Assembly: GCA_038853715.1 (NCBI GenBank)
Contig: JAWCJE010000001.1
Coordinates: 117,963 to 181,962, forward strand
From: Candidatus Nezhaarchaeales archaeon
Lineage (GTDB): Archaea > Thermoproteota > Methanomethylicia > Nezhaarchaeales > JAWCJE01
Length of the DNA: 64,000 nt
Direction of reading: 5' to 3'
Under the pieces are notes generated by a model that made no database searches, was not told the origin of the DNA, and worked only from the letters and a program-made list of their open reading frames with translations. Within the stretch, counting starts at the first letter, position 1; each line of letters starts with the position of its first letter. This document shows, piece after piece, positions 8,671-58,154 of this stretch. Position numbers and translations under genes: made by a program.

Positions 8671-9804
8671 TCAATAAAATTTAAAGCTTACACCCCCTTG
8701 AATTAGTAACGGTTTAAGGTGTTGCCTCCTCATGAAGCCTATTAGCTCGTTGAGGTTTGGGTGGGATCCCTTCTCACTTGATATGTAGTATCCGGCTACG
8801 GCGTTAGCTACTATTAACTTAGCGGGGCTAGGTATATCTAAAGCCCAGCAGTAAACGTTACCAGCGTTCCAAGCGTCGCCAGCGCCAGTTACCCTTTTCA
8901 CCTGTACGTCGAAGGTGGGGAGTAGGGTAAAACCATCCTCCTCAAAGGATGCTGAGTAATTCGCCGTATGAAGGTAAACCTTAACGCGTAGAGCTTCATG
9001 TAGGAGGCGCGCCGCGGTTAATACTAGTTCGTCGGAGGGGCCTTTAGGCTTTAGACGCGCTATATCCTCATTTAAACATGAGGCATACCAGAGGGCTTCA
9101 TTCTCGTTTACGCTAAGGGCGTCGATTAGGCCGCTTTTAAGTACTTCGTCGATAAGCGTCTTAACTTCTCCAGCCCTACGTGATGGATCCCCTGTATCTA
9201 GGAAGATTTTAGGTTTACCCTGCTTCTTTAAGCGTTGAAGTACTGCCTTTATGAGCTCGGTGCCTCTACGGTTGGCCGTCCAGTTTAATAGGCATAATAC
9301 GTCGGCGTCCTCCATTAACGAGTATTCACGCTCGGTTAACCATTCGGGCCCGTATTTAGCTAACGTACCTGGGTCGCTAACCATTATGTTAACTAAGCGG
9401 CCCTTATGCTTTAGCTCGATGGAAACTGTTGACGATAATTCGCCATTACACCTTACGCCGCTAAGGTCGACGTCGAGGCCGGCCATAAACCATTTGAGGA
9501 GGTTTAGCCCGAGCTCGCTGGTTACCGATATTAAACGTACCCTTGCGCCTAGACGGGCAAGCGCTGAAGACGTATTTGCGGCGTTACCACCCCTCATAAC
9601 CATCTGCTTAGTAAGAGGTAGGCTTCCACCGCCTTGATCAGCTAGTAGGGTGAGGTCGGTTAAAAGGTTTGTTAAGTCTGCTTCGTAGCTTACTATTGTA
9701 TCTAGGAAGAAGTCCGGCATTACCGTGATTGTCGGCTTACCTTTAGCTGAGGTTAAGGCTTCAATAGCTTCATTTAACCAGCGGTTCATAGCCACTGGTA
9801 ACAC
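8671..9804 (-). CDS. PfkB/ribokinase-family carbohydrate kinase.
   Basis: 377 aa with the C-terminal signature 'VTGAGDAWNAG' (PfkB motif 2). Confidence 0.75.
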   Translation of the reverse strand: MLPVAMNRWLNEAIEALTSAKGKPTITVMPDFFLDTIVSYEADLTNLLTDLTLLADQGGGSLPLTKQMVMRGGNAANTSSALARLGARVRLISVTSELGLNLLKWFMAGLDVDLSGVRCNGELSSTVSIELKHKGRLVNIMVSDPGTLAKYGPEWLTEREYSLMEDADVLCLLNWTANRRGTELIKAVLQRLKKQGKPKIFLDTGDPSRRAGEVKTLIDEVLKSGLIDALSVNENEALWYASCLNEDIARLKPKGPSDELVLTAARLLHEALRVKVYLHTANYSASFEEDGFTLLPTFDVQVKRVTGAGDAWNAGNVYCWALDIPSPAKLIVANAVAGYYISSEKGSHPNLNELIGFMRRQHLKPLLIQGGVSFKFY

Positions 9805-9821
9805 GCTTAATCAGTTATCGT

Positions 9822-10562
9822 TTAAAAGGCTGGAGAAGCGGTTGAAGGGAGGCTTAGTACGACCTCGACGGGGCATGGTATACCGCTTAAAAGCTTCCTC
9901 CATTCATCGCCAAAGGCTAGTAACGTGAAAACGCCGACTAGCCTAGCTTTCGCCTTCCTAGTTATGTTTATTAGAGCCTGCACCGTTCTACCGGTTCTAA
10001 TCATGTCGTCAACTATTAATACGTCGTCCTTAGCCGTTAAGGAACGCTTTGGGACGTAGAGCGTGGTAAGCGATACCGGGCTACCAGCTGGGTAGGATTC
10101 CTCTATGAATTCTTTAACGCCTATATCCTTAGTCGCTTTAGCTATTACGATGGGGGCTTCAAGCGCTAACGCCACCGCTGTGGTTAATGGGATGCCGTTA
10201 ACAGCCGCCGTAACTACCTTGGTTATCCTCTTACCGGCGAACCTAGTCATTGCCTCGCTGGAGGCCTGCGTAAGCACGTAGGGGTCTTGGATTATGGGCG
10301 TTAAATCTACGTAGCCGTACTCATCGTACCTTAGTAGTGATTTAAGGATTGATGAGAAACTTATATTTCTATTCATGAGGCTCCAGAGGCTTTGAGCTAC
10401 GCTTTCACTAGGTGTTACATCGCCCTTAATGTATCTACATAGAACTGTTTCAGGCTTATTTAACTTCTTTGAGAGCTCCGCGTATGAATACACCTTTTTA
10501 AGGAGCCTTAACTTATTAACCACCATTAACCTAAACTTTAGGTTCTCCTCCTTACGCTTCAT
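9822..10562 (-). CDS. HTH plus type-I phosphoribosyltransferase-domain transcriptional regulator (GfcR/PyrE-like regulator architecture).
   Basis: The N-terminal wHTH region is followed by the PRTase PRPP-binding motif 'VLIVDDMIRTGRT'. It sits immediately upstream of the PfkB kinase on the same strand. Confidence 0.65.
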   Translation of the reverse strand: MKRKEENLKFRLMVVNKLRLLKKVYSYAELSKKLNKPETVLCRYIKGDVTPSESVAQSLWSLMNRNISFSSILKSLLRYDEYGYVDLTPIIQDPYVLTQASSEAMTRFAGKRITKVVTAAVNGIPLTTAVALALEAPIVIAKATKDIGVKEFIEESYPAGSPVSLTTLYVPKRSLTAKDDVLIVDDMIRTGRTVQALINITRKAKARLVGVFTLLAFGDEWRKLLSGIPCPVEVVLSLPSTASPAF

Positions 10563-10876
10563 ATTCCCCCTCTACAAGCCTGACATAAAAAATTGGTTTC
10601 ATCCCCTCTTAAGCTTTCCTTACTTAAATTAAACCGGACGTTGAGAGCCGTCACTACCATATTGATTCGCATTAAGCTAACGCTTTACCATAAGAGGCAT
10701 GCTTGATTAAACGCTACGTTGAAGCGTTACACCTAAGGCGGCATCGAGGCGCTTACGATCCTGAAGTTCCTCGAGCATTAATCCGCGTGAAATTTAATCC
10801 TTAAATTCTCCATTAGAGATAACGGTTAAGAAGCTGCTATCACCCTTAAAGGTCGAGGCTGTACGGTGAAAACGCT

Positions 10877-11794
10877 ATGAGGCCTGAGCTCATCCTTAAA
10901 GCTAGGGAGGCCAAGGCGGAGGAGCTCGAAAATCTAGCTTTAACCGTTAGGGCTATATTGCGTAAGGAAAGGGAGAAAGGTGTTTTCGGCGGCGGAATAG
11001 TGAAGGGGGGACTGGTACAGGTACGTGGATACGAGGAGGCTATAGTGATTGGAGATATCCATGGCGACTTCGAGGCCTTAACAACTATGGTTGAGGGGGC
11101 CGGTATACCCCGTGGTTTAGGTACTGATAGGCTACTAATCTTCCTAGGCGACTACGGAGATAGGGGGGAACAATCGGTTGAGGTCTACTTTCTAATTTTA
11201 GCTTTAAAAGCTTCATACCCCGATGGCGTAGTCCTACTTAGGGGTAATCATGAGGGCCCACATGATTTAGTGGCTAGCCCCCACGACCTTCCATACCAGT
11301 TCGTGGAGAGGTATGGGGATAAAGGGGTAAGGCTTTACCTGGTTATCTCCTCCCTCTTCGATGCTCTCCATCACGCTTTAACGGTTAATGGGTACTTAAT
11401 GCTTCACGGTGGGGCTCCGAGCGGAGCTAAAAGTATTGACGACATAGCGTACGCCCACGAGAAGCATCCGAGCGAAACCAGCCTTGAGGAAATACTTTGG
11501 AATGACCCCGTTGACGACGTACTGGGAACCTATCCATCGCCTCGAGGCGCCGGTAAACTCTTCGGTAAGGATGTAACGGAGCGCGTACTCTCAATGACGA
11601 ATTGCGAAGTATTAATTAGGGGGCATGAGCCCTGCCGTAAAGGTGTTAAAGTACAACACGACGGTAAGGTTTTAACGCTTTTCTCACGTAAAGGCTATCC
11701 ATACTGGAACGATGAGGCAGCCTACCTTAAGATAAACCTAAAGGATCAAGTTCTTAACGCGTATGAACTAGCTGAATCAGCTATCAAGTTTTAA
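10877..11794 (+). CDS. PPP-family Ser/Thr protein phosphatase (calcineurin-like metallophosphoesterase).
   Basis: Motifs 'GDIHGD', 'GDYGDRG' and 'LRGNHE' are all present. Confidence 0.8.
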   Translation: MRPELILKAREAKAEELENLALTVRAILRKEREKGVFGGGIVKGGLVQVRGYEEAIVIGDIHGDFEALTTMVEGAGIPRGLGTDRLLIFLGDYGDRGEQSVEVYFLILALKASYPDGVVLLRGNHEGPHDLVASPHDLPYQFVERYGDKGVRLYLVISSLFDALHHALTVNGYLMLHGGAPSGAKSIDDIAYAHEKHPSETSLEEILWNDPVDDVLGTYPSPRGAGKLFGKDVTERVLSMTNCEVLIRGHEPCRKGVKVQHDGKVLTLFSRKGYPYWNDEAAYLKINLKDQVLNAYELAESAIKF

Positions 11795-32303: not shown

Positions 32304-32855
32304 TTGAATACTAACTGTCCCCATGGGATTTTTCTACCTAAGTACTTCTTCGTCACTAGCGGTAAAGCCGTAAGCTCCGAGTCCCCGTTAAACGCCTTCG
32401 ACCTAGCCTTAATGGATGCGAAGATTGATCAATGCAACATAGTCTCCGTTTCCTCCATAATACCGCCTGACGCTAAACAGATAGACCCTATAAATATAAC
32501 TCCTGGCACCATAGTGTTCGCGGTTCTAGCTAGAATGGATGGAGCGAGTGGTGAAACCATAGGTGCAGGTATAGCTTGGGCGTGGGGTACTAGGAATGGG
32601 GTGGATAAGTACGGCGTAGTAGCTGAAGCCCACGGCTATAAGGATAAGCAAGCACTTGAAAAGGAGTTAAAGGCTAAAATACAGATGATGGGTAAAATAA
32701 GGAGGTTATCGTTCACTGACATATACACTAAGGTTGAAAGCATTGATACTATACCTAAGGGTAAGTATGGATGCGTAGTTAGCGCCTTCGTCTACGTACC
32801 TTGGAGCGAGAAGGAAGGCGGTAGGAACGTAAACCCTACAAGTATCAAGCAGTAA
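32304..32855 (+). CDS. pdaD: Pyruvoyl-dependent arginine decarboxylase.
   Basis: 'KYFFVTSGKAVSSESPLNAFDLAL', with the Ser-Ser self-cleavage site context. Confidence 0.8.
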   Translation: MNTNCPHGIFLPKYFFVTSGKAVSSESPLNAFDLALMDAKIDQCNIVSVSSIIPPDAKQIDPINITPGTIVFAVLARMDGASGETIGAGIAWAWGTRNGVDKYGVVAEAHGYKDKQALEKELKAKIQMMGKIRRLSFTDIYTKVESIDTIPKGKYGCVVSAFVYVPWSEKEGGRNVNPTSIKQ

Positions 32856-32953
32856 GCCTAGAGGAGGCTAAGAGTTAAATCTTTTAGTTAGGTATTACTA
32901 CTTTTAACGCCATTTAACCCAACTACTACCTTAACCTCTTCAACGTTTAACAG

Positions 32954-33026
32954 TGAGTCTATTGCAAAACTCTATTACTTAAGTTGATCGGTCAAGTATT
33001 TACTAAGAGTTTTGCAATGAGTTCAG
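32954..33026. repeat. Inverted-repeat element copy A (13-bp perfect arms 'attgcaaaactct'/'agagttttgcaat', about 35-bp spacer). This is a diverged member of the family also seen at 42071-42157 and 57627-57725.
   Basis: Arms were read directly from the sequence. The spacer 'cggtcaagtatttact' resembles the spacers of the other two copies ('cggtcaattagttatt', 'gtcaattgattatc'), and the right arm shares 'GAGTTTT..A..GAGTTC' with them. Confidence 0.5.
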
Positions 33027-33751
33027 TATTAAGCAATTGGAGCAGCGCGTACCGTACTTGTTAGGTTGCCGCTGATGATCTATATCTAGGCGTATAAGTT
33101 ACCAGGACTTCGGCGTAACGGAAAACATTCTCATCGGGTATATTGGGACGTACCTGTTTAGAGGGCTCCTAAAAGCCCATAATCTACTTCAGTTTCAGTA
33201 GGTTGAACTACTAATATGTAAAGAAAAAATAGAGGATAGGTTTTGAATGTTTTACCAGATCACGTTAAAGTTGCATGGACATACTTGAACTTCGCGGGGT
33301 AGTTTTAAGCCGCACCTACTGCATACTATCCATTCCGCGCTAGTCTTATCGGATCCCTTTAATGAAGGGTGAGGCGTAGAAGGCTTTGGCTGTGAAGAAT
33401 CTTTCTGGTTAACGTTTACTGGTGAAAACGTGGCACGCTCCTTGGTAAACCCCTACCCTCCGCACCGAAATACCTCCGGGGGTCTAGGCTTCCCAAGATA
33501 CATATAAACCTTTTCGCGTTGATCCGGGTACTATCAAGTTCTTTCAGGGTTTAAATATTAACCTTAAGCATCTCCAGATATAAGATAAAAACTTAATAGT
33601 ATCTCGATCAGCGTTAAGGGATACCTTTTGGATTACTTAGTTGTGCTTCGCGAGGCTTTACCGTGATTATGAGGTGTTAACGCCACTTGAAGTATTAAAC
33701 GTATACGTGGCTTAAGCTGGATTAGACGTTTATGCACTTTAACTTAAGGCT

Positions 33752-35697: not shown

Positions 35698-36936
35698 ATG
35701 TCCAAGCTGGATTTTTTAACGATGGATGATTACGACTTTACCGGTAAGAGGGTGCTTTTAAGGGTTGACATGAACATACCGGTGGATAAAGCTACGGGGC
35801 GGCTTAAGGAGACTGCGAAGATATATGAGCATGCTAAAACGATTTTGGAGTTAGTTAGGAAGAAGGCTAAGGTGGTTGTCTTAACACATCAAGGTAGACC
35901 GGGTGAATCCGACTTTATACCGCTTGATCAGCACGTTGAAGTTTTAAGCTCGATAATAAGCCGCGTGAAGTACGTTAAGGACTTAATGGGCGAGGAGGCT
36001 GAAAGGTCCATAAAGGAATTGAAAAATGGAGAAGTCTTAGTCCTTGAAAACGTGAGGACGTGGCCGGAGGAGCTTAAGGAGCAACCTCCCGAAGAGCTTG
36101 CTAAGTCTAAGCTGGTTCAGAAGCTAGCCCCCCTCTTCGACGTCTTCGTTAACGATGCCTTCGGCGCCGCCCATAGAAGTCAAGCGTCCTTAGTGGGGTT
36201 CGCCGAAGTATTACCCACCGTCGCTGGGAGGCTTATGGAGTGGGAGCTTAAAATGCTGGTTAAAGCCGCTTCTAAACCTGAGAGGCCCTCAATATACATA
36301 CTTGGAGGGGTTAAAGCGGAAGACGCCGTAGAGGTATGTGAAGGCGTACTATCCAGGGGGGTAGCGGATAAGGTTTTAACGGGCGGCTTAATAGCCTCCA
36401 TATTCCTAACGGCTAAAGGATATAGGCTTGGAGAGCCTAATGAGCAATTGATTGAGAAGAAGGGCTTTAAAAGCATGGTTCCCGATGCACAAAAGCTACT
36501 CTCTAGGTTTGAAGGAAGGATCGTAACACCGGTGGACGTAGCCGTTGAAAAGCCTCGAGGTAAACGTAGCGAGGTTAAGGTAGGCGACCTACCCGTGGAC
36601 GCCCTAATAAAGGATGTAGGAGCTGATACGATAAACCTCTATAAGGAGGAATTAAAGGACGCTAAAACCGTGGTGTTTAGCGGCCCCCTAGGGGTTTTCG
36701 AGGAGCCCTTATTTATGAGGGGGACAGAGGAAATACTTAAAGCTATGGCTAACTCCAAAGCCTTCACTATGATAGGGGGAGGACACACCGTAGCCGCGGC
36801 TAAGCAGGTAGGCGTTATAGATAGTATAAGCTACACTTCAACGGGTGGTGGAGCGTTAACAGCCTACTTAACGGGGAAGGAGCTACCAGTAGTAACCGCG
36901 CTTAGAAAAGCCGCTCTAAGAAGACGGACTGGCTAA
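35698..36936 (+). CDS. pgk: Phosphoglycerate kinase.
   Basis: 412 aa with the N-terminal 'RVDMNIPV', 'GGGA' and the C-terminal 'GGGHTVAAA' PGK motifs. Confidence 0.9.
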   Translation: MSKLDFLTMDDYDFTGKRVLLRVDMNIPVDKATGRLKETAKIYEHAKTILELVRKKAKVVVLTHQGRPGESDFIPLDQHVEVLSSIISRVKYVKDLMGEEAERSIKELKNGEVLVLENVRTWPEELKEQPPEELAKSKLVQKLAPLFDVFVNDAFGAAHRSQASLVGFAEVLPTVAGRLMEWELKMLVKAASKPERPSIYILGGVKAEDAVEVCEGVLSRGVADKVLTGGLIASIFLTAKGYRLGEPNEQLIEKKGFKSMVPDAQKLLSRFEGRIVTPVDVAVEKPRGKRSEVKVGDLPVDALIKDVGADTINLYKEELKDAKTVVFSGPLGVFEEPLFMRGTEEILKAMANSKAFTMIGGGHTVAAAKQVGVIDSISYTSTGGGALTAYLTGKELPVVTALRKAALRRRTG

Positions 36937-40746: not shown

Positions 40747-41586
40747 GTGGGGCCGTTAAAACGCGAAATCCTAGAGCTGCTAGATAAGGATTTAGAGTTC
40801 CGCTACGCGATCGCAGGATATCTAGGGTTATCTGAGGTCTTAAAGAGACTTAATGCCTTAGTCGAGGAACAAGTAAAGCTTAGGGAGGAACAAGTAAAGA
40901 TATGGAGGGAAATAGCGTCATTAAGGGAGGAACAAGCGAAGCTAAGCGAGGAACAAGTAAAGCTTAGGGAGGAACAAGTAAAGATATGGAGGGAAATAGC
41001 GTCATTAAGGGAGGAACAAGCGAAGCTAAGCGAGGAACAAGTAAAGCTTAGGGAGGAACAAGTAAAGATATGGAGGGAAATAGCGTCATTAAGGGAGGAA
41101 CAAGCGAAGCTAAGCGAGGAACAAGTAAAGCTTAGGGAGGACTTTAATAGGATGCTTGATGAACTCAAGCGTCTCAACGTTAGACTCAGCAGGGTTGAAA
41201 GAACGCTGGAGAAGCTTACCGTTGACGTTGAAGATGAGGCTAGGTCTGTCCTCAAGCATAAGCTTAAGGAGATGGGTATAAGCGTTGAGTTAACCTCTTT
41301 AACCCTTCCAGGATTAGAGCTTAATATTTACGGCGCTTCGAACGACGTCTGCCTAATCGGTGAAGCCACCGTTAGGGCTGGGGCAGACCTTGCGGATGAA
41401 CTACTAAGGAGGCTTGAGAGGCTTAAAAGGGATTACCCTGAAAAGCTTAGAAGGAAGGTCGTGCTCGCGATTTACACCTCATTACCCATGGCCGAGCTCG
41501 TGGAGAAGGCTAAGGAGAAAGGGATCTGGCTCCTAAAAGCCACAGAAGAATTTCATAAACCCGAAAAATTATTCATAGAGCTCTAA
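40747..41586 (+). CDS. Coiled-coil protein with three identical 28-aa repeats and a C-terminal alpha/beta domain (possible PD-(D/E)xK-like 'ELNIYGASNDVCLIGEATVR').
   Basis: The repeat 'EEQVKLREEQVKIWREIASLREEQAKLS' occurs three times. The C-terminal 150 aa is non-repetitive. Confidence 0.6.
   Translation: MGPLKREILELLDKDLEFRYAIAGYLGLSEVLKRLNALVEEQVKLREEQVKIWREIASLREEQAKLSEEQVKLREEQVKIWREIASLREEQAKLSEEQVKLREEQVKIWREIASLREEQAKLSEEQVKLREDFNRMLDELKRLNVRLSRVERTLEKLTVDVEDEARSVLKHKLKEMGISVELTSLTLPGLELNIYGASNDVCLIGEATVRAGADLADELLRRLERLKRDYPEKLRRKVVLAIYTSLPMAELVEKAKEKGIWLLKATEEFHKPEKLFIEL
40864..41141 (+). repeat. Perfect direct tandem repeat of 84 bp, 3.3 copies, inside the CDS.
   Basis: Units start at 40864, 40948 and 41032 and are identical at the nucleotide level. 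A partial fourth unit runs to about 41141. Confidence 0.9.
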
Positions 41587-41826: not shown

Positions 41827-42045
41827 ATGAACACGTACTTTAACGGGTGGCAAGGATGGCAACAGGTACCGGGAGGGTTAACGGATGTAGGCCCGGCGGT
41901 AATGGCTTACGATGGTGGATTGATGCTCGTGGTTAAAGACGCGGGACTCGGAATATGGTACAACACCTACAACGGCTCATGGAGAGAGTGGACCCTAATA
42001 GACGGATTAACAAACACACAACCGGAACTAACACCAAGCCAATAA
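41827..42045 (+). CDS. Small Trp/Gly-rich hypothetical protein, possibly the distal part of a frameshifted beta-propeller/lectin-like gene.
   Basis: 72 aa ('WQGWQQVPGGLTDVGPAVMAYDGGLMLVVKDAGLGIWYNTYNGSWREWTLIDG'). An upstream 39-aa ORF in another frame (41706-41825) overlaps by 'atga' and would continue the same blade-like repeat. A T-rich palindrome follows the stop. Confidence 0.3.
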   Translation: MNTYFNGWQGWQQVPGGLTDVGPAVMAYDGGLMLVVKDAGLGIWYNTYNGSWREWTLIDGLTNTQPELTPSQ

Positions 42046-42070
42046 AAACACTCCTCTTTTTTAAAAAAAG

Positions 42071-42157
42071 GTTCGTCTGAAAACCCTAGGCTGATCTTGA
42101 AACCCTAACACGTTAAGTTAGCCGGTCAATTAGTTATTAGGAGTTTTCAGACGAGTT
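42071..42157. repeat. Inverted-repeat element copy B ('gttcgtctgaaaaccct' ... 'aggagttttcagacgagttc').
   Basis: IR arms of about 15-17 bp separated by roughly 50 bp. The spacer contains 'cggtcaattagttatt'. Related to copies A and C. Confidence 0.55.
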
Positions 42158-42285
42158 CTTTGCAACAGACTCTTTTAAAAGGAGTTAAAGATTGTATGGA
42201 AGAGCTAGTTAAGGAAGGCTATATTTTACAGCAAATTAGGCCGGGGATGAAACCATGTTAAGGCAGCCCGTTTCTTCAAGGTTTT

Positions 42286-42864
42286 TTACGTTGCCTCCAA
42301 TATCTTGTTTAACGTTTCAAATAGCTCCAGGTACCTTCCTTTGGCTTGGGATTGCCACCCTTTGAGGGCGTTGAATATGTTGCCTATATCGTAGACCGAG
42401 GTTGCTTCCCGAGGGAGGCCGTCCTCCTCGAGTAAGCGTTTAAGCTCCCGCTTTAACGCTTCCTTATCGCCGCCTAGATTATACGAAGTCGCTACCGCAA
42501 CTTCCGAAGGAGTGCAAGGCCCCTTCACCCATGTGAAGCCCGCGCGTTCCACCTTACCCGGTTCCATGAAAAACCTGGCTGCGCGTACCACTTGACTAAG
42601 AGCTTCTTTAAGCTTGCTTTGAAGCTTACTCACTTTAACCTCGGCTACCGCGAACTGCTTCTGGCTAGCTAAGGCAGAGGCCGCGTCAACCTCCAACTTG
42701 TCAATTTTTAGGGGGCCCCTCGTAGCCTTCCACACGGGCTTGGTTTGGCTGAGAACCCTGCCGAGCCACCAAATGCATAGCGGCTCTCCTAACGACGTTC
42801 GCACATGACCCGGGTTCCTTCTGAGAAACTTAGTAATCCACGGAATGCTTTCGGGCTTCGCCAC
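42286..42864 (-). CDS. Hypothetical protein.
   Basis: 192 aa (GTG start, with an in-frame stop 90 nt upstream). No motif recognised. Confidence 0.4.
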   Translation of the reverse strand: MAKPESIPWITKFLRRNPGHVRTSLGEPLCIWWLGRVLSQTKPVWKATRGPLKIDKLEVDAASALASQKQFAVAEVKVSKLQSKLKEALSQVVRAARFFMEPGKVERAGFTWVKGPCTPSEVAVATSYNLGGDKEALKRELKRLLEEDGLPREATSVYDIGNIFNALKGWQSQAKGRYLELFETLNKILEAT

Positions 42865-46388: not shown

Positions 46389-46470
46389 AGCTAAACACTC
46401 CATCCTTTATTTTCCCCCGGTAAAGACGAGTTTTACGAAGTATCGACGCTTAAACATTATTAGTTTAAGC

Positions 46471-46573
46471 GTTGCTTTGTGGCTTAATTCCTAGCCCTAC
46501 ATTAACTCCACATGAGTTAACGTGAGGTATTTAATGTGGGATTAGTGAGGAGTACATAATTAAGCCACAAAGC
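46471..46573 (+). ncRNA. Copy 1 of a roughly 103-nt structured element (16-bp terminal stem 'GCUUUGUGGCUUAAUU'/'AAUUAAGCCACAAAGC' plus internal hairpins). It is a candidate small RNA or MITE.
   Basis: About 92% identical to 57444-57546. The differences keep the base-pairing intact (a t>c / a>g pair in the outer stem, and U.G to C-G or C-G to U.G changes in the inner stems). It is flanked by the palindromes 'gcttaaac...gtttaagc' and 'aagcgtttaaacgctt'. Confidence 0.5.
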
Positions 46574-46824
46574 ATAAGCGTTTAAACGCTTCGCTAGGTG
46601 TTAACCGTTGGGTTACGCCTTTATCTTCCTTAAAGGTTGGAAGCTTAAAATCTTAAGCGAAGCTAATTTAAGCTTAGAAAAGTAACGGCGCTGGACTTCG
46701 ATAGGTTTTAACGTCGTTGGCTTAAACCCTAACTCCCGTTTTAACTAAGGTTAAAGGTAAGCTTTTAGTAGTAAAGGCCTTAAAGATGTTTTGGCGCCTT
46801 TAACCGTTAAAGGCTGGGGGCTTC

Positions 46825-57443: not shown

Positions 57444-57546
57444 GTTGCTTTGCGGCTTAATTCCTAGCCTTACATTAACTCTACACGAGTTAGCGTGAGG
57501 TATTTAATGTGGGATTAATGAGGGGTACATAATTAAGCCGCAAAGC
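57444..57546 (+). ncRNA. Copy 2 of the roughly 103-nt structured element; begins 4 nt after the TrmB-like gene stop.
   Basis: See copy 1. The outer stem is 'GCUUUGCGGCUUAAUU'/'AAUUAAGCCGCAAAGC'. Confidence 0.5.
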
Positions 57547-57626
57547 TAGAGAAATATAAAGGAATTAGTCTCACAGCACATTCAAGCAAAGCCTAGAAGA
57601 ATCTCGCTAAAATTTTACGAGTTATT

Positions 57627-57725
57627 TCTGAACTCATCTGAAAACTCATTAGTCGCTTTTGAGGCTTTAGTAGGTTAAAATAGCTAGTCAATTGATTATC
57701 AAGAGTTTTCAGCCGAGTTCTCTGA
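57627..57725. repeat. Inverted-repeat element copy C ('tctgaactcatctgaaaactc' ... 'gagttttcagccgagttctctga').
   Basis: 18 of 20 bp in the arms are complementary across a roughly 55-bp spacer containing 'gtcaattgattatc'. The right arm supplies the last 9 codons and the stop of the 57699..58154 gene. Confidence 0.55.
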
Positions 57726-58154
57726 CAATTTTGAGAATAGGGGATCAAGATATTTTTCCGAATATGCAGACAGATGTATAAATAGAGATGAGCGAATGTG
57801 GAAAACTAGGTTTTTTGCTGGTACCCGCATCTTCCCAGCTTCTTTCTCTGCTATTTGTAATGAAACCTCATTCAGCCTTTTCACTAATGGATGCTCTGTA
57901 TTTATCCTGTATAGCGTTGCTCTTCCTATGTTTCTTGAAGGCTTAACTATTTCTAACTCCTCAAGGTCTTTGAAGTTCTTGTAGAAAGTTTGCTTGCTCA
58001 TTCCTAACTCTCTTACAACCTCGCTCTTGCTGAAGTCAAAGTATGGGTTATCTAGGAAAATATCTAATATTCTTAGCTTAGGTGAGTAGCCTAACATCTT
58101 TACGAAAAGGGTTTCCCCGAGATCCTTGTACCTTACTTCCGACATCTCAAGCAC
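57699..58154 (-). CDS. Winged-HTH transcriptional-regulator-like protein (low-GC islet).
   Basis: 151 aa. 'KLRILDIFLDNPYFDFSKSEVVRELGMSKQTFYKNFKDLEELEIVK' looks like a wHTH. GC is about 40%. Confidence 0.5.
   Translation of the reverse strand: MLEMSEVRYKDLGETLFVKMLGYSPKLRILDIFLDNPYFDFSKSEVVRELGMSKQTFYKNFKDLEELEIVKPSRNIGRATLYRINTEHPLVKRLNEVSLQIAEKEAGKMRVPAKNLVFHIRSSLFIHLSAYSEKYLDPLFSKLSENSAENS

Follow-up and report, generated by a model that had tools for sequence, protein, structure and literature searches.

A probable MITE-like family of palindromic repeats in archaea of the order Nezhaarchaeales

The repeats described here are closest in kind to the Sulfolobus MITEs SM1-SM4, of which SM1 is about 80 bp long, and to several bacterial families of palindromic elements. 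For SM1-SM4, partner insertion sequences are known and 25-44 copies per genome have been reported (Redder, She and Garrett 2001, cited in PMC10969869). The bacterial MITEs in which the palindrome spans the whole element include ERIC/IRU (127 bp), Correia/NEMIS, RUP, and RU-1, RU-2, and RU-3 (PMC3184786, PMC2229807, PMC2759123), and copies of such elements can join open reading frames, adding C-terminal residues (PMC2759123). A further class, the REPs, comprises sequences of 20-40 bp with a GTAG or CGTC tag at one end, associated with RAYT transposases (PMC3733652).

The 64-kb window analyzed here (that is, the whole stretch of DNA under study) contains three related hairpin elements in one shared orientation, named A, B, and C, and two further copies, D and E, lie outside it (Table 1). 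We regard A-E as probably representing a new MITE-like family of small, non-coding palindromic repeats of 70-91 bp. MITEs were among the explanations offered in the original prediction and are the best fit, as there is one real family, it has more copies, and the corresponding sites of relatives are empty. Like SM1-SM4 and other archaeal MITEs, the elements are short and non-coding, belong to a Thermoproteota thermophile, have terminal inverted repeats, and occur as diverged intergenic copies, in the size range of the smallest such elements. Unlike SM1-SM4, to which they have no sequence similarity, they were seen in only four to five copies, with no partner insertion sequence found and a possible 3-bp duplication in two of five. 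With ERIC, Correia, RUP, and RU they share an imperfect palindrome that spans the whole element, would give one long RNA hairpin if co-transcribed, and is intergenic, often at gene 3' ends; here, however, the sequence is unrelated, and the overlap with a gene stems from a frameshift that lies upstream of the repeat. Correia elements are known to carry an IHF site, to duplicate a TA target, and to be processed by RNase III. The resemblance to REP/BIME elements lies in the extragenic palindrome, the bias in strand and orientation, and a possible role in the stability of mRNA 3' ends, but at 70-91 bp, without a GTAG/CGTC tag and with no RAYT gene seen, these repeats are not REPs.

The three inverted-repeat copies originally predicted in the window are all present, and their cores were refined by alignment and profile search. 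The arm pattern GAGTTTTCAGNCGAGTTC, searched in the window with up to three mismatches, gave three matches (one in B and one in each arm of C, the left arm on the other strand) against 0.07 expected from shuffles; it misses copy A. A profile built from the three copies recovers just A, B, and C in the window, all on the + strand, with E-values from 1e-27 to 3e-19. A structural scan of the window, for which AAAAC...GTTTT plus at least eight of ten outward pairs was required, returned A, B, and C again, against 0.06 expected in shuffled sequence. It is thus confirmed that the family is not in the window by chance (fewer than 0.1 copies expected), and its members bear arms at both ends, as MITEs do, at a chance expectation of 0.06-0.07 per window. 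A conserved spacer had also been claimed: the motif CGGTCAATTnnTTAT does stand in register in A, B, and C, but it is not significant by itself, with 12 matches vs. 16.8 expected. As had been noticed, A, B, and C each lie between convergent ORFs, and the association with low GC roughly holds (0.38 at 43-44 kb and 0.43-0.44 at 57-59 kb, vs. about 0.48 for the window). In keeping with small non-coding elements of MITE size, no ORF crosses them apart from one of 26 aa, one of 51 aa, and the gene for a helix-turn-helix (HTH) regulator, which does so with its frameshifted tail.

Table 1. Positions of the repeat copies and associated features (window coordinates unless a locus is named)
Feature	Position	Strand	Description
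Copy A	32955..33024	+	70-nt core, arms GAGTCTATTGCAAAACTC / GAGTTTTGCAATGAGTTC; found by profile and structural scan
Copy B	42070..42158	+	89 nt; found by arm pattern, profile, and structural scan
Copy C	57630..57720	+	91 nt, arms GAACTCATCTGAAAACTC / GAGTTTTCAGCCGAGTTC; found by arm pattern, profile, and structural scan
Copy D	~450 bp past the right end of the window; L027 1267-1352 = L034 12434-12523	same orientation as A-C	Fourth, more diverged copy
Copy E	L001 6639-6726, MAG GCA_038894875.1 (another Nezhaarchaeales)		Between the start of an ACR3-type gene and tRNA-Arg
Winged-HTH regulator gene	57699..58154	-	35-aa read-through tail; ends in the right arm of C
Frameshift site	57806..57816	-	A6 run (T6 on +, 57811-57816); ancestral TAG 57806-57808 out of frame
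Left-junction island	57609..57629	+	21-22 nt abutting the left edge of C
Second hairpin family	46473-46574 and ~57446-57547	+	~102 nt, arms ~40 nt, 92% identity between copies

All five copies have inverted arms of 18-20 bp that enclose a partly conserved core. The consensus of the terminal inverted repeat is GAACTCnnCTGAAAACTC (18-20 bp), the core measures 32-55 bp, and its right half is conserved as TTAAGTTAGCCGGTCAATTAGTTATTARGAG; the ends by which a matching insertion sequence would be recognized are GAACTC..CTGAAAACTC. A, B, and C all fold into long hairpins, with z-scores from -3.1 to -5.6. The best hairpin of the set is that of copy B (-33.5 kcal/mol, z = -5.6), which sits between a 72-aa ORF (41827-42045, +) and ORF 42286-42864 (-), and in whose left arm the outermost 5 nt have diverged. 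Copy A, which starts 100 nt downstream of pdaD (stop ending at 32855), is a variant in which both arms have changed together (ATTGCAAAACTC / GAGTTTTGCAAT), with a covarying GCAAT in each. The copies are best read as three diverged subfamilies, A/E, C/D, and B.

The proposed check for additional copies brought to light D, just outside the window, and E, at an unrelated locus of another genome, and the family thus has several dispersed copies, as MITEs do: four in 74 kb of the host species and one in a different species. When 185,579 representative genomes were searched with a 21-base pattern, a single locus in one species matched, which is copy E. The cores of A and E are identical at 72 of 75 positions by hand count, i.e., 96%, loops included, and when the 8-kb locus of copy E is compared with the 64-kb window, the element is the sole similarity (92% over 78 nt). 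Apart from A-E, profile and structural searches found no copies in about 170 kb of Nezhaarchaeales and related loci, and none are present in about 74 kb from six other related loci; on these sequences, the distribution of the family across the order is patchy. A metagenome scan with an 18-base pattern returned 25 loci that we take as chance hits, because the profile match was limited to the pattern itself. Two scans of viral contigs produced 43 arm-only chance matches, and the A-type core had no match in the viral-contig scan. Copy D lies within a gene-free stretch of 1.4 kb (L034 12304-13698, about 300-1700 nt past the window's right end), and the 55-aa UPF0261-family fragment after it looks like a decayed duplicate of the neighboring UPF0261 gene. 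Within the window, positions 1936-2051 duplicate 36726-36841, a 116-nt coding fragment of pgk (about 90% identical, translation EEILKAMFNSEAFTMIGG...); the duplicate lies 35 kb away from pgk, in the spacer that separates a methyltransferase gene from a DUF2153 gene.

The host species, a Candidatus Nezhaarchaeales MAG lineage to which protein look-ups assigned the window, has been sampled in many assemblies (99.9% identity), and among conspecific MAGs no insertion polymorphism was seen for A (seven loci), B (five loci), or C, which is present wherever it is spanned. Copy A is identical in seven of seven loci, and B is identical in four of five and present in the fifth. Contigs that end inside an element are a usual signature of repeats, and contigs of independent assemblies end inside A (L095 and nine similar places), while two independent assemblies (L030 and L031) break inside C. 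The number of repeats in a different sequence does vary among conspecific MAGs or assemblies: in ORF 40747-41586, an in-frame tandem repeat of 84 nt (4 x 21) at 40842-41162 encodes the coiled-coil motif EEQVKLREEQVKIWREIASLREEQAKLS, and the region is 184 nt shorter in L092 and 28 nt shorter in L090.

A comparison with the orthologous regions of relatives, also proposed at the outset, showed that they are without the element at the sites of A and C. The MAG that carries copy E (GCA_038894875.1; locus L039) keeps the synteny Tsr3-pdaD-DNA ligase, at 56-58% amino acid identity to the window. There, pdaD (8729-9250) shares 4 nt with the ligase gene (9247-10944), leaving no intergenic DNA and no element, and the site of A is therefore empty. 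In the window the interval between the two genes is 896 nt and holds copy A plus about 720 nt of gene-free DNA. The relative lacks this DNA, which runs from copy A to the ligase stop (33025-33751) and contains no ORF above 34 aa; it has no Rfam match and no similarity to any of the retrieved loci. The context of copy E is lineage-specific too, because the HD-domain gene that lies beyond the tRNA is directly preceded by other genes in three further relatives: by UbiD in L042 and L043, and by a partial gene with no family assigned in L041. Presence and absence thus differ between genomes as expected for a MITE: the site of A is empty in L039, E is in an unrelated context, and there is no element downstream of the HTH gene in two relatives (L032 and L033). 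Confinement of the motif to three places, with the same sequence at the orthologous loci of relatives, had been named as the outcome favoring a conserved regulatory site, and it does not apply since extra copies exist and the orthologous sites lack the element.

These empty sites bear directly on the idea that the repeats are a conserved protein-binding palindrome (operator) or a terminator-like hairpin for the adjacent genes. Such a function would suit copies that are palindromic, intergenic, and placed between convergent genes, with B and C near small winged-helix regulator genes, and yet we consider it very improbable: the orthologous intergenic regions of relatives are without the sequence, the genes adjacent to the copies are functionally unrelated, arms of 18-20 bp spaced 32-55 bp apart are unlike known archaeal operators, and copy E is beside a divergent gene start instead of a 3' end. 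Both alternatives had been raised in the original prediction; the regulatory palindrome is disfavored by the empty orthologous sites, and the terminator by the lack of a consistent T-run after the copies, archaeal termination relying on T-runs. An origin-recognition box was also considered, as CTGAAAAC weakly resembles ORB cores, and was rejected: no orc1/cdc6 gene was seen, the arms are 32-55 bp apart, and there are four sites in 32 kb.

At locus C, the element overlaps the winged-HTH regulator gene, and it had been claimed that the last nine codons and the stop lie in the repeat, as if an insertion had replaced the original 3' end. The stop (TGA, 57699-57701) is indeed in the right arm of C, but only the last six codons are in the core arm (about nine by the boundaries first drawn). 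The proposed replacement is not upheld, as a +1 frameshift upstream explains the tail and C gives just the last ~6 codons and the new stop. The regulator is highly conserved; its close homologues have 116 aa and the C-terminus ...RVPAKT-stop, and among the best 120 homologues listed most have 109-125 aa (range 90-148), covering about 59-83% of the 151-aa query. At the frameshift site the window reads GCAAAAAACCTAG, vs. GCAAAAACCTAG in L032 and GCAAAAACCTAA in L033, so that the relatives have A5 and the window species A6. The gene ends in copy C only because this separate +1 frameshift (A5 to A6) removed the ancestral TAG, and the 35-aa tail crosses about 78 nt of former 3' UTR, conserved in relatives, before it reaches the element. 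The longer form is seen in all assemblies of the species, including independent ones, and is therefore a real allele. Public annotations of the same species call a 148-aa form of the gene, best annotated as a frameshifted 116-aa protein; exact look-ups with the 151-aa, GTG-start HTH ORF and with ORF 10-969 returned no record.

The flanks of C show that the history of the locus was not simple. L032 and L033 match the window at about 80% identity across the HTH gene and some 75 nt of 3' UTR, and the homology stops at precisely the right edge of C. The island abutting the left edge is identical, in L032, to the end of a 61-aa Zn-ribbon gene, from its last codons through the stop into the 3' UTR; in L033 there are one or two mismatches. 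In L032 this gene lies downstream of the HTH gene; in the window its body has been lost, leaving a remnant in inverted orientation with respect to the HTH gene. Locus C cannot be described as a simple empty site, since the left flank is inverted and about 370 nt (the spacer and the Zn-ribbon gene) are missing, and more than one event must therefore have taken place there.

Direct repeats of 3 bp adjoin two of the copies. Copy A is flanked on both sides by AGT (32952-32954 and 33025-33027) and copy C by TCT (57627-57629 and 57721-57723), in each case exactly at the arm ends, and nothing comparable is found at the arm ends of B, D, and E. Two exact 3-bp matches in five copies have a chance probability of about 0.002, with the boundaries set by eye and after inspection; for that reason, a 3-bp target-site duplication in two of the five copies is suggestive only. 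Neither the window nor its 10-kb extension encodes a transposase, and no autonomous element with matching ends was found there.

A second hairpin family, with two copies in the window, provides a useful comparison. It is like the first in its size of about 100 nt, its whole-element palindrome, its intergenic location, its position on the + strand and its better folding on that strand (by about 10 kcal/mol in both copies), and it adjoins copy C. It differs in its unrelated sequence, its arms of about 40 bp, and a clear 7-bp duplication that the focal family lacks. This is a perfect direct repeat, TAAGCGT, at 46466-46472 and 46575-46581 around the first copy, and it leads us to conclude that cut-and-paste MITEs have been active in this genome. 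Between the two copies there is one compensatory change, T-A to C-G. The other copy, some 80 nt away from copy C, follows the TrmB stop by 4 nt, and a JGI contig (L029) ends inside it.

The strand on which the elements fold best raises the question of whether they act as RNA. They might constitute a family of structured RNA genes, or of elements acting as RNA, about 70-95 nt long and read from the + strand, in which stem and core are kept by selection on the RNA, with roles such as a stabilizing 3' hairpin, an antisense or a guide RNA, and with A/E, B, and C/D as functional variants; we think this unlikely, but it accounts for several features. All copies are predicted to fold better on the + strand (summed minimum free energy -143.9 vs. 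-119.4 kcal/mol), and the stem of copy D is held by four G.U pairs (-31.9 kcal/mol on +, -17.7 kcal/mol on the other strand). Mismatches in the outer stem, counted on the + strand, are ten G.T (G.U) against three A.C, and such strand-biased mismatches would fit selection on RNA, or on one DNA strand, better than an element that is purely double-stranded DNA. This 10:3 bias is weak, however (one-sided p of about 0.05), and the excess of G.T may equally be a C-to-T mutation bias because the + strand is G-rich, with a positive GC skew along the window. The arms covary between subfamilies (CAGNC/GNCTG vs. GCAAT/ATTGC), and B, C, and D can form two small inner hairpins with two compensatory pairs; against this, three to five sequences give little power to a test of covariation, and the inverted ends of transposons covary trivially. 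A single orientation is common to all four copies in the host species. The A-type core is conserved at 96% between genomes whose amino acid identity is 57%, but such identity, loops included, exceeds what vertical descent of an RNA gene usually leaves, and recent transfer fits better.

Other observations speak against RNA genes. Among the five copies there is no consistent TATA/BRE-like promoter upstream and no T-run terminator downstream. The gene context varies, three copies being downstream of co-oriented genes and D and E beside divergent gene starts, and within the order the family occurs in patches instead of being conserved. With Rfam 15 the window has no match at gathering thresholds, and permissive searches around A, B, and C gave hits at chance level, far below threshold; a tRNA scan found no match to the elements. 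By inspection of the five copies, C/D-box sRNAs were rejected, as UGAUGA is absent from both strands and CUGA is inside a perfectly paired stem, and so were H/ACA sRNAs, as an ACA is found behind the stem in just two copies, B and C, and its distance from the stem differs between them. Mobility and RNA function could also be combined. The elements would then be lineage-specific mobile hairpin-RNA genes, transcribed from one strand, under selection tolerant of G.U pairs, with A/E, B, and C/D as functional paralogues and with horizontal exchange in Nezhaarchaeales, a proposal that we judge distinctly unlikely. If it were true, they would be mobile units and, at the same time, RNAs serving the cell or themselves, and not inert transposon debris.

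The same strand asymmetry could be explained at the level of single-stranded DNA, by a REP/BIME-like element or one derived from IS200/IS605 (PATE-like), whose hairpin is read on one strand by a Y1 (HUH) transposase. This would explain one orientation relative to replication and the tolerance of G.T on one strand; the four focal copies and both copies of the second family are on the + strand, the cumulative GC skew rises uniformly across the window, the stability of the hairpin is strand-biased, and three of the five copies are without a target duplication. Its probability is nonetheless small. A palindrome that spans the whole element and measures 70-91 bp is larger than REPs (20-40 bp) and unlike PATEs, whose two ends each bear a small hairpin of their own. 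The five copies have no conserved GTAG/CGTC-type tetranucleotide at the foot of the stem and no conserved target tetranucleotide in their flanks, and the window contains no tnpA, RAYT, or tnpB gene. Moreover, a 7-bp duplication such as that of the neighboring second family is what cut-and-paste DDE transposition typically leaves, unlike single-strand transposition.

We therefore return to the MITE-like element as the best explanation of the family. A transposase encoded outside the window would recognize the inverted ends and move the element to AT-rich intergenic sites, where 3 bp of the target may be duplicated, and the copies would then decay into the subfamilies A/E, C/D, and B. Recently, the A-type subfamily may have moved, or been exchanged, between two Nezhaarchaeales lineages that are distantly related, and the insertions, with associated rearrangements, would reshape the 3' flanks of genes. 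If RNA polymerase reads through a copy, the transcript is predicted to form a stable hairpin, more stable on the + strand, which could affect transcript 3' ends. Counting against the MITE reading are the failure to find a partner insertion sequence in the window and its 10-kb extension, the absence of target duplications in three of the five copies, the lack of polymorphism among conspecifics, the one orientation of all four copies in the species, and a total of just four copies in 74 kb.

The palindromic family is previously undescribed, in a class that is itself ordinary and well known. We know of no existing mobile-element inventory for Nezhaarchaeales, an uncultured order of hot-spring archaea, in which two palindromic families are now documented, the focal repeats and a second, clear MITE family. 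Such repeats break assemblies, make long gene-free spacers, and mark the junctions of rearrangements, and together with a frameshift a repeat can add residues to proteins. Finally, that a distant relative has an almost identical copy is a hint of recent DNA exchange between co-occurring lineages.
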